A stretch of 44,071 nucleotides of DNA from Escherichia phage vB_EcoS-UDS3lw. Below the pieces are notes generated by a model. That model ran no database searches. It was not told the origin of the DNA and worked only from the letters and a program-made list of their open reading frames with translations. Location of the stretch: the sequence record PQ658967.1. One strand, given 5' to 3'. The translations under genes and the position numbers were made by a program. This document shows, piece by piece, positions 8,039 through 9,559 of this stretch. Each line of letters begins with the position of its first letter. Position 1 is the first letter of the stretch.

Positions 8039-9125
8039 TCAATATATGGCGGATCGAATGATTCGCCGACACATCTTCACCCAGCGCCTGAGTAATGACC
8101 AGGCGCGGCGGGTGCTGGCTATGTGGGAGAAGTTCCGGCCCACGTTACTGGGTAAGCTGACCGAGTTACTTGATGGCAAAAAGTCCATGAACAACAAGGC
8201 ACTTACCACTCTGTTAACGCAACTCGACAAGACCGTTAAAACAGAACTGCGCGCCGAGTTTAAAGTGCTGGCGGAGAGCCTTCAGGAGTTCGCCGACACC
8301 GAGGCTGATTATCTCGCGGACACACTAACGGCAGCGATCCAGCCCGCGGTCGCCGTACCAGCGGTTGAGGTGGTGGGTGTAGTGACTGGCGCGCAGATTG
8401 CAGCGACGGCAATGAAAAACCCGTTCCAGGGTAATACGATGATGCAATGGCCTGATTCACTTTCCGAGTGGACCAGGACGCAGATCGGCAATCAGGTGCG
8501 CGCTGGATTCATCCAGGGCAAGCCGACTATGGAAATTATTGCGGACGTGAGGCGCGCGCTAGGCGGTCGTAGTGCGCAAGCAATCTCAAGCGTTGTTAAG
8601 TCCGCCGTCAACCACTATGCGGCGACAGCCCGCGAATTAATGGTAAAAGCTAATGACGATATTCTCGAAGGTCGCCAATGGTTGTCCACATTGGACACTC
8701 ATACTTCCCCTATGTGCCAGCTACGCGATCGCCTGTTTTATCCTGTTGACGTCACTCCCGACACCAAAGGAAAACGCGGCGGGAAAGTGGTGGCGGGATC
8801 ACAATATGGCGCTGGACCGGGCAAGCTGCATTATTGCTGCCGTTCGACGGAGACGTGGAAAGTCAAAGGTATGGAAGATTGGCCCAGTGGTAAGCGTCCG
8901 GCACTGAAGGCTGACGCGGGCCGATTGCTGAGTGAGCAGGTCGACGCGCAGACTGATTTCTTCTCCTGGGTGCAGCGCCAGCCGCGCCATATTCTGGAGG
9001 AATTATATGGGGTGCAGCGCGCAGATCAGATTATGCGCGGCGTGCAAGTGCCGAAGATGTTCACCGATACTGGCGAACTAATGACTATTGCGCAGCTTAA
9101 AAACAGGGGGCTATGGCGTGATTAA
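8022..9125 (+). CDS. head morphogenesis protein (Mu F / SPP1 gp7-like minor capsid protein)
   Basis: C-terminal motif WLSTLDTHTSPMCQLRDRLF resembling the Mu-F family; position after portal. Confidence 0.65.
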   Translation: MAKTINQYMADRMIRRHIFTQRLSNDQARRVLAMWEKFRPTLLGKLTELLDGKKSMNNKALTTLLTQLDKTVKTELRAEFKVLAESLQEFADTEADYLADTLTAAIQPAVAVPAVEVVGVVTGAQIAATAMKNPFQGNTMMQWPDSLSEWTRTQIGNQVRAGFIQGKPTMEIIADVRRALGGRSAQAISSVVKSAVNHYAATARELMVKANDDILEGRQWLSTLDTHTSPMCQLRDRLFYPVDVTPDTKGKRGGKVVAGSQYGAGPGKLHYCCRSTETWKVKGMEDWPSGKRPALKADAGRLLSEQVDAQTDFFSWVQRQPRHILEELYGVQRADQIMRGVQVPKMFTDTGELMTIAQLKNRGLWRD

Positions 9126-9426
9126 ATACGCGGCGATCGGATTGGTTATAGGTCTGGCGGTTGGATTCTGGCAGGGTGATTCCTACCGCACTGGCGTTGA
9201 GGCGAGAGCGGCGCAAGAAGCGCAAGCGAAAGCCCAACGGCAGCAAACTAAGGTTGTCGAGGGGGCCGTGCAGGCAGAACAGGCCCGCGATGTGGAATAC
9301 CGGACTATCACGAAAGAGGTTGTAAAATATGTTACGCGTCCTAACCGTCCTGATTGCAGTTTTGATGCTGAGCGCGTGCGGATCAAGCAAAGCGCCATTG
9401 ATGCCGCTAACCGAGTCGGTCTATAG
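9118..9426 (+). CDS. putative i-spanin (Rz-like)
   Basis: GTG start with AGGGGG SD; N-terminal TM helix then Q/A/E/R-rich coiled-coil region; contains start of lipoprotein gene in another frame. Confidence 0.5.
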   Translation: MIKYAAIGLVIGLAVGFWQGDSYRTGVEARAAQEAQAKAQRQQTKVVEGAVQAEQARDVEYRTITKEVVKYVTRPNRPDCSFDAERVRIKQSAIDAANRVGL

Positions 9427-9559
9427 ACCTCCTTGCACCTTTGAGAATGCCTCGGCGGACCCAGACGAAGACTTGCTGGTTGATGTTAAGAATATGGAGT
9501 GTGGTGCTAAGCTAAGGGCGCAAGTGCTGGAGTTGCAGAAAATAATTCGGGGGCCGTGA
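9329..9559 (+). CDS. putative o-spanin (Rz1-like outer-membrane lipoprotein)
   Basis: Signal peptide with lipobox LSAC, Pro-rich mature part; start embedded in i-spanin ORF in +1 frame and extending beyond it. Confidence 0.55.
   Translation: MLRVLTVLIAVLMLSACGSSKAPLMPLTESVYRPPCTFENASADPDEDLLVDVKNMECGAKLRAQVLELQKIIRGP

Follow-up and report, generated by a model that had tools for sequence, protein, structure and literature searches.

Two overlapping open reading frames (ORFs) in the window (the whole stretch of DNA that was analysed, 44,071 nucleotides) very probably encode the two-component, overlapped spanin of a Dhillonvirus phage, which would carry out the third step of Gram-negative lysis. 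The sequence-level characteristics of both products, their matches to PHROG families and their homologues in the Jerseyvirus Shelanagig and in a Klebsiella phage support this reading, which was also that of the earlier note, where the ORFs were described as an Rz/Rz1-like spanin pair. The first ORF would encode the inner-membrane subunit (i-spanin) and the second the lipoprotein subunit (o-spanin).

Judging from its sequence, the window belongs to a Dhillonvirus (HK578-like) coliphage. The region from 8000 to 10500 matches 157 phage records, including 142 named Escherichia phages and 5 named Dhillonvirus. The best matches are Envy and Sloth (97.0% identity across all 2.5 kb), followed by Gluttony, Lust and GeorgBuechner. 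The gene order is that of Envy: two holins, endolysin, exonuclease, small and large terminase, portal, head morphogenesis, then the two small overlapping genes, one minus-strand gene, scaffold and major capsid.

The two overlapping ORFs

The features of the pair and its immediate surroundings are as follows.

8022 to 9125, plus strand: head-morphogenesis gene (SPP1 gp7-like), 367 aa, TAA stop; phrog_241, E 3e-116; context only, outside the lysis function
9105 to 9110, plus strand: Shine-Dalgarno-like AGGGGG, 7 nt 5' of the i-spanin GTG; GGGG(G) kept in 18 relatives
9118 to 9426, plus strand: putative i-spanin gene (Rz-like), GTG start, 102 aa; phrog_2536, E 5.7e-35
9127 to 9171, plus strand: predicted transmembrane helix of the i-spanin, residues 4-18 (YAAIGLVIGLAVGFW), from hydropathy; a helix also in the low-confidence AF2 model
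9314 to 9319, plus strand: Shine-Dalgarno-like AAGAGG within the i-spanin coding sequence, 9 nt 5' of the o-spanin ATG
9329 to 9559, plus strand: putative o-spanin gene (Rz1-like), ATG start, 76-aa lipoprotein precursor; phrog_5672, E 1.2e-25, and phrog_1267, E 5e-12
9368 to 9379, plus strand: lipobox L-S-A-C of the o-spanin, residues 14-17; kept as L[ST]AC among Dhillonvirus relatives
9549 to 9571, no strand assigned: G+C-rich hairpin and T-run, intrinsic-terminator-like, including the o-spanin stop; hairpin 9549-9567, -17.1 kcal/mol, z -2.0; kept in 18 relatives
9574 to 10383, minus strand: Nmad5-domain gene, between the spanin pair and the scaffold gene

The first ORF is real and, as previously stated, its GTG at 9118 overlaps the TAA stop of the head-morphogenesis gene by 8 nt, an overlap through which the i-spanin start appears to be translationally coupled to that stop. 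A TTG at 9088 was rejected as the i-spanin start: it lacks a Shine-Dalgarno sequence, the GTG at 9118 and the GGGGG are kept in all relatives, and the GTG is the start used by the curated annotation.

Residues 4-18 form the sole hydrophobic stretch of the i-spanin (Kyte-Doolittle about 2.0), the remainder being hydrophilic with abundant Ala, Gln, Glu and Arg. Only Met-Ile-Lys is predicted to lie on the cytoplasmic side. By analogy with known i-spanins, the product would be a type II inner-membrane protein with a single N-terminal transmembrane domain (TMD) and a periplasmic C-terminal helical domain. The predicted periplasmic part is short (about 83 residues), which was counted against the spanin reading, and it contains one cysteine, Cys80, at about 73% along its length. 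An AlphaFold model built from the single sequence, which served for secondary structure only, has helices at residues 5-72 and 84-99 but is of low confidence (pLDDT 59, pTM 0.24), and in a crude test of a/d heptad occupancy the i-spanin did no better than its shuffles. Thus, where the earlier note had described a transmembrane helix followed by a coiled-coil-prone region, the transmembrane helix stands and "helical" is a fair description, but the coiled coil is unproven.

The second ORF was likewise found as described before, starting inside the first in another frame and carrying the lipobox LSAC. It lies in the +1 frame of the i-spanin gene, begins 211 nt into it, shares 98 nt with it and extends 133 nt past its stop, which is the "overlapped" architecture. 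The N-terminus of the product, MLRVLTVLIAVLMLSAC, followed by Gly-Ser-Ser after the lipobox Cys, is a textbook lipoprotein signal. As the residue at +2 is Gly, the protein would carry no inner-membrane retention signal. The mature o-spanin would have 60 aa with two further cysteines, Cys36 and Cys58, the first periplasmic Cys being at about 33% along the mature protein. The positions of the cysteines in both subunits match the published distributions for two-component spanins (PMC6139136). The lipoprotein assignment of the earlier note thus holds, but its "Pro-rich" mature part was overstated, with proline making up 6 of 60 residues (10%) as opposed to 10 of 40 (25%) in lambda Rz1.

Comparison of the locus in related phages, which had been proposed as a check, showed that both ORFs and their position are common to the relatives. 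At all 17 related loci (down to 76% DNA identity), both ORFs are intact and the GTG and ATG starts, the lipobox L[ST]AC, Cys80 of the i-spanin, and Cys36 and Cys58 of the o-spanin are retained. These three cysteines are also invariant in the cross-genus comparison, and the lipobox Cys is invariant as far as Jerseyvirus, Kagunavirus and the Klebsiella phage. All 18 relatives examined retain both the head-morphogenesis junction and the hairpin 3' of the o-spanin gene. Variable sites at codon positions 1, 2 and 3 number 23, 11 and 45 in the part encoding only the i-spanin, and 14, 7 and 29 in the part encoding only the o-spanin. Within the shared 98 nt, the variation follows the i-spanin frame, which suggests that the o-spanin signal peptide absorbs the changes. 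In phage EE09, CDS34 is a homologue of the i-spanin (99 of 102 residues identical) for which one peptide was found by mass spectrometry, indicating that the i-spanin is translated.

Both ORFs are short, one has a GTG start, and in several GenBank records they are called hypothetical or the second is missing, as might be expected if one or both were unexpressed chance open frames. However, the frames are open in 17 of 17 relatives with their starts, ribosome-binding sites and signals conserved, each shows the codon-position bias described above, protein homology reaches other genera at 35-49% identity, and there is the peptide of the EE09 homologue. The conservation pattern by itself has already refuted this explanation, whose probability we consider practically nil.

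Family assignment and homologues

Both subunits match PHROG families of the "Rz-like spanin" type, phrog_2536 for the i-spanin, and phrog_5672 and phrog_1267 for the o-spanin. A Pfam search found no family at E <= 0.1 for either protein, and so no lambda-type Rz/Rz1 model; neither protein reaches the gathering score of those families. The weak Pfam matches (E <= 1) of the Jerseyvirus, Kagunavirus and Klebsiella homologues included no Rz/Rz1 model. The NCBIfam model for P2 LysC (NF038368, Rz1-like) gave 14.5 bits (E 0.031), below its curated cut-off of 27 bits, and a PDB sequence search yielded no solved relative, the only hits being chance matches to ribosomal protein S5 (E > 0.1). By these searches, the two proteins are not sequence members of the lambda or P2 spanin families. 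As there is no Pfam family and the P2 LysC match is below threshold, the assignment rests on features, PHROG families and context.

With respect to features, the pair has the characteristics by which two-component spanins are recognised (Summer 2007; Kongari 2018): a single N-terminal TMD in the i-spanin, with the topology predicted above; an o-spanin lipobox of the form [LVI][ASTVI][GAS]C without Asp at +2; adjacent genes in one of the embedded, overlapped or separated arrangements, here overlapped; and, by sequence, periplasmic cysteines available for homotypic intermolecular disulfides. Both subunits also show significant similarity to the "Jersey" family and PHROGs 2536 and 5672. The overlapped "Jersey" i-/o-spanin families include HK578, JL1, EP23, SSL-2009a, SO-1 and EK99P-1 (Kongari et al. 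2018, PMC6139136), and in SpaninDataBase the family also holds Jersey, SETP3, K1G and K1H (PMC6139136). No experimental test of a "Jersey" family member was found in the literature examined.

A tblastn search with the i-spanin matched 610 phage records, chiefly Salmonella and Escherichia siphoviruses. Jerseyvirus Shelanagig has full-length homologues of both subunits (i-spanin, 39% over 110 aligned positions, BLASTP E 3e-14; o-spanin, 46% over 78 aligned positions, BLASTP E 5e-19), which are annotated as i-spanin and o-spanin in a record with tags of the Center for Phage Technology (CPT_). Both genes bear the label "putative spanin" in Kagunavirus K1H. The phage of the window belongs to the same genus as the HK578-like members of the "Jersey" family. 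This family and the window pair are both overlapped with the o-spanin in the +1 frame, they share the motifs KYVTRP.R..C.F in the i-spanin and PPC...D.DEDL..DV....C..LR in the o-spanin, and in both the locus is preceded by an SPP1-gp7-like gene and followed by those for scaffold and major capsid. They differ in the length of the i-spanin (102-109 aa in Dhillonvirus, 128 aa in the Jersey family), in the overlap (98 nt in Dhillonvirus, 155 nt reported for Jersey), in the i-spanin start, which is fused to the head-morphogenesis stop only in Dhillonvirus, and in what lies 3' of the pair, which is a terminator and a minus-strand Nmad5 gene in Dhillonvirus and the scaffold gene directly in the Jersey family.

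The relative that tells us most is the lambdoid Klebsiella phage 2b LV-2017, where a full-length i-spanin (38% over 98 aligned positions) is encoded directly 3' of an S-family holin and a lysozyme. An unannotated lipoprotein ORF with the PPC...D.DEDL..DV....C..LR motif overlaps it. Both proteins of the pair thus have overlapped homologues in this phage but in the classical position, so that the same pair fills the classical Rz/Rz1 slot elsewhere. Comparison of 2b LV-2017 with Dhillonvirus shows that the same gene pair moves between the canonical cassette and the head module.

Relative to lambda Rz/Rz1, both predicted topologies, the +1-frame o-spanin and the periplasmic cysteines are alike, and the mechanism is presumed to be the same. 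However, there is no detectable sequence relationship, the lambda o-spanin gene is embedded whereas this one is overlapped, and the window pair does not adjoin the holin and endolysin genes. In addition to being less proline-rich than lambda Rz1, the window o-spanin has a conserved C-terminal half that is probably helical.

The lysis system and a proposed mechanism

The remaining lysis genes, and the only other lipoprotein gene in the window, are located as follows.

1867 to 2157, plus strand: holin, first of two, in the distant lysis cassette; phrog_2359, E 1e-31
2154 to 2399, plus strand: second holin or holin-like membrane protein; phrog_2508, E 1.4e-27
2386 to 2877, plus strand: endolysin (phage lysozyme); PF00959, E 9e-21; phrog_7
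26194 to 26412, strand not given: Cor exclusion lipoprotein

The endolysin has no N-terminal hydrophobic segment and would therefore be soluble. Next come a soluble ORF of 55 aa and a terminator. When all ORFs of the window were scanned for lipoprotein signals, only the o-spanin ORF and Cor emerged as convincing candidates, and no other spanin candidate was found among the ORFs after the endolysin or in this whole-window scan.

Since small phage lipoproteins such as Cor and Llp act in exclusion, and since the spanin function of this family is a predicted one, we considered whether the pair might be another envelope system, e.g. a lipoprotein that excludes superinfecting phages or masks a receptor, together with a membrane partner. 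This seems very unlikely, as the phage already has a Cor homologue, as an overlapped transmembrane protein and lipoprotein with conserved cysteines is the signature of spanins, and as the homologues in a lambdoid phage are found in the place of Rz/Rz1, behind holin and lysozyme. Moreover, if the pair were absent, the phage would be left without any means of disrupting the outer membrane.

Taking the pair as spanins, we can propose a course of events whose steps are those of the lambda/T4/T7 model summarised in PMC6139136; the topology, the formation of complexes and disulfides, the fusion of the membranes and the transcription unit are all inferred from the lambda, T4 and T7 paradigms. The two genes would be read at the end of the terminase-portal-head-morphogenesis string, i-spanin translation being coupled to the upstream stop. 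The N-terminal helix of the 102-aa product would insert into the inner membrane, its mostly helical domain reaching into the periplasm, while the 76-aa product would be exported, lipidated on Cys17, cut by signal peptidase II and carried by the Lol system to the inner leaflet of the outer membrane. The C-terminal regions of the two subunits would then bind each other across the periplasm, with the conserved cysteines forming homotypic disulfides. During late gene expression, such complexes would build up harmlessly, threaded through the peptidoglycan meshwork. Once the holins (1867-2399) had triggered and the peptidoglycan had been cleared by the soluble lysozyme (2386-2877), the complexes would be free to collapse, fusing the inner membrane with the outer one and letting the progeny out. 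As the spanins would be restrained by the wall, no co-regulation with holin and endolysin would be needed; they could be synthesised at any time in the late period, and a position in the head module would pose no mechanistic problem.

Position within the head module

The pair does lie in the head module away from the holin and endolysin genes, the 6 kb given in the earlier note corresponding to a gap of 6.2 kb, and this position is conserved. In Dhillonvirus, Jerseyvirus and Kagunavirus alike, the pair follows the SPP1-gp7-like gene and precedes those for scaffold and major capsid, and in a Jerseyvirus paper the spanins are Gp_009 and Gp_010 and the holins and endolysin Gp_063-065, the PHROG families being the same as here. 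The location is conserved and not peculiar to this phage. Comparable arrangements exist elsewhere. In T7, the gp18.5/gp18.7 spanin pair also lies inside a packaging/structural string, flanked by the small and large terminase genes and at a distance from the lysozyme gene, although it is embedded, belongs to an unrelated sequence family and is little separated from its holin gene, which is just 5' of the small terminase gene. In T4-like genomes, the lysis genes are not clustered, according to a spanin survey (PMC6139136). No explicit comment on the head-module position of these spanins was found in the Dhillonvirus, Jerseyvirus and Shelanagig papers.

The placement between the head-morphogenesis and scaffold genes might also be expected if the two proteins were minor virion or head-assembly proteins. 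The peptide of EE09 CDS34 was recovered from a pelleted "cell-free lysate", and the EE09 paper called the protein "very likely" structural. However, that judgement was made from gene position alone, and the preparation also held endolysin, terminase and phosphoesterase and was thus not one of pure virions. Membrane fragments would pellet at 82,000 g, so an inner-membrane protein is expected in such debris. In addition, capsid proteins do not carry membrane anchors at the N-terminus or lipoprotein signals, and homologues are found at a distance from head genes in the lysis cassette of a lambdoid phage. The peptide is therefore taken as evidence of expression, not of virion membership, and a structural role for the pair seems extremely unlikely.

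With the spanin reading retained, the transcriptional context can be defined more closely. The pair is the end of the terminase-portal-head-morphogenesis gene string. The hairpin at 9549-9571 has the form of a terminator in either direction and might therefore serve the convergent Nmad5 gene too. As this conserved terminator lies directly 3' of the pair, the spanin genes are probably off the scaffold and major capsid transcript. Two statements of the earlier note consequently need narrowing: the pair is in the region between the head-morphogenesis and scaffold genes but is not directly adjacent to the latter, since the hairpin (9549-9567) and the minus-strand Nmad5 gene (9574-10383) intervene; and its co-expression with capsid genes would apply to the terminase-portal-head-morphogenesis string, and probably not to a transcript shared with scaffold and major capsid.

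It is conceivable that the head-module placement and the stop/start coupling are functionally required, either by linking spanin dosage or timing to head-gene translation or through a second role of the i-spanin in membrane head assembly, but we give this only a slender chance. A frozen accident of module shuffling is the alternative. The one EE09 peptide, which came from pelleted material, is compatible with a particle-associated fraction of the i-spanin.

The pair has already been catalogued, and neither the spanin reading nor the position next to the head genes is new with respect to public annotation or to the spanin catalogue of Kongari et al. In GeorgBuechner (NC_073066, BASEL collection), precisely the same two ORFs carry the names i-spanin and o-spanin, the annotation of that collection having used SpaninDataBase; RefSeq labels those of Envy and Gluttony "Rz-like spanin", and a 2025 Dhillonvirus paper counts the Rz-like spanin in the lysis system.

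The records differ in quality. Many Dhillonvirus entries label the spanin genes hypothetical, and in the RefSeq record of Envy the o-spanin is truncated such that the lipobox is lost. No o-spanin is annotated in the EE09 record, and the structural role given to the i-spanin in the EE09 paper was a guess.

The significance of these findings goes little beyond annotation quality. The pair would complete the lysis system of the phage (two holins, endolysin and spanins), which is relevant to the assessment or engineering of such phages for therapy. The conserved separation of the pair from holin and endolysin would provide a natural example of spanins that need no co-regulation with the lysis cassette, as was already implied by T4 and T7.

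[quoted passage not shown]

The features at the 3' end of the i-spanin gene and 3' of the pair are as follows.
9418-9426: 3' end of the i-spanin gene, site of a length difference between relatives
9574-10383, minus strand: gene with an Nmad5 domain (PF18757, E 4.5e-54; phrog_1965)

The i-spanin has 102 amino acids in 7 of 18 sequences, which form the clade of the window (the window counted). Among the 17 related loci, 11 (L006-L013 and L015-L017) encode a form of 109 amino acids that ends in GVGTATAVQVR, and the overlap with the o-spanin gene is therefore 21 nt longer at these loci. 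The C-terminus of the Jerseyvirus i-spanin has an AAAVQ motif, which this extended tail resembles.

The opposite-strand gene at 9574-10383, in which the Nmad5 domain ("nucleotide modification associated domain 5") is full-length, separates the o-spanin gene from the scaffold gene. Dhillonvirus relatives have this gene at the same site; the Jerseyvirus Shelanagig and the Kagunavirus K1H lack it there, and in these two phages, the spanin genes are followed directly by the gene in the scaffold position.

The site after the endolysin gene, and a second lipoprotein gene

The position directly 3' of the endolysin gene is the normal site for spanin genes. The features below were found there and among the tail genes.
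2893-3060, plus strand: conserved ORF for a soluble protein of 55 amino acids (phrog_11068, E 2e-38), immediately 3' of the endolysin gene
3067-3088: bidirectional terminator-like hairpin, 3' of the 55-amino-acid ORF
26194-26412, minus strand: homologue of the superinfection-exclusion protein Cor, a lipoprotein of 72 amino acids (phrog_1119, E 9e-27; NCBIfam NF047972, E 5e-16, exceeding the cut-off)

The Cor homologue, which begins MKTLIMICAVLLSGC... and is encoded among the tail genes, is the only convincing lipoprotein in the window other than the o-spanin.

Spanin genes in public records

Homologues of the pair in two other phages are listed here.
Locus L022, 4119-4427: EE09_34 of phage vB_EcoS-EE09 (OR756193), i-spanin homologue, annotated as hypothetical
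Locus L022, 4330-4560: intact, unannotated o-spanin ORF of the same phage
Locus L020, 6077-6319: overlapped, unannotated o-spanin ORF of Klebsiella phage 2b LV-2017 (KY271395; 80 amino acids, lipobox LCSC)

EE09_34 has been proposed to be structural after the detection of one mass-spectrometry peptide in pelleted lysate; the record carries no locus tag EE09_33. The 80-amino-acid ORF of 2b LV-2017 is homologous to the o-spanin ORF of the window. It belongs to a lambdoid cassette of holin, lysozyme and spanin genes, where it comes after the gene annotated as "protein spanin".

In phage Envy (NC_031081), the RefSeq o-spanin (10402-10560 of locus L002) is a 5'-truncated call of 159 nt that starts 3' of the signal peptide and lipobox, although the genome contains the ORF intact at its full 231 nt. 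The phrog_5672 model likewise spans only residues 32-76 of the o-spanin, which suggests that the truncated call is widespread.
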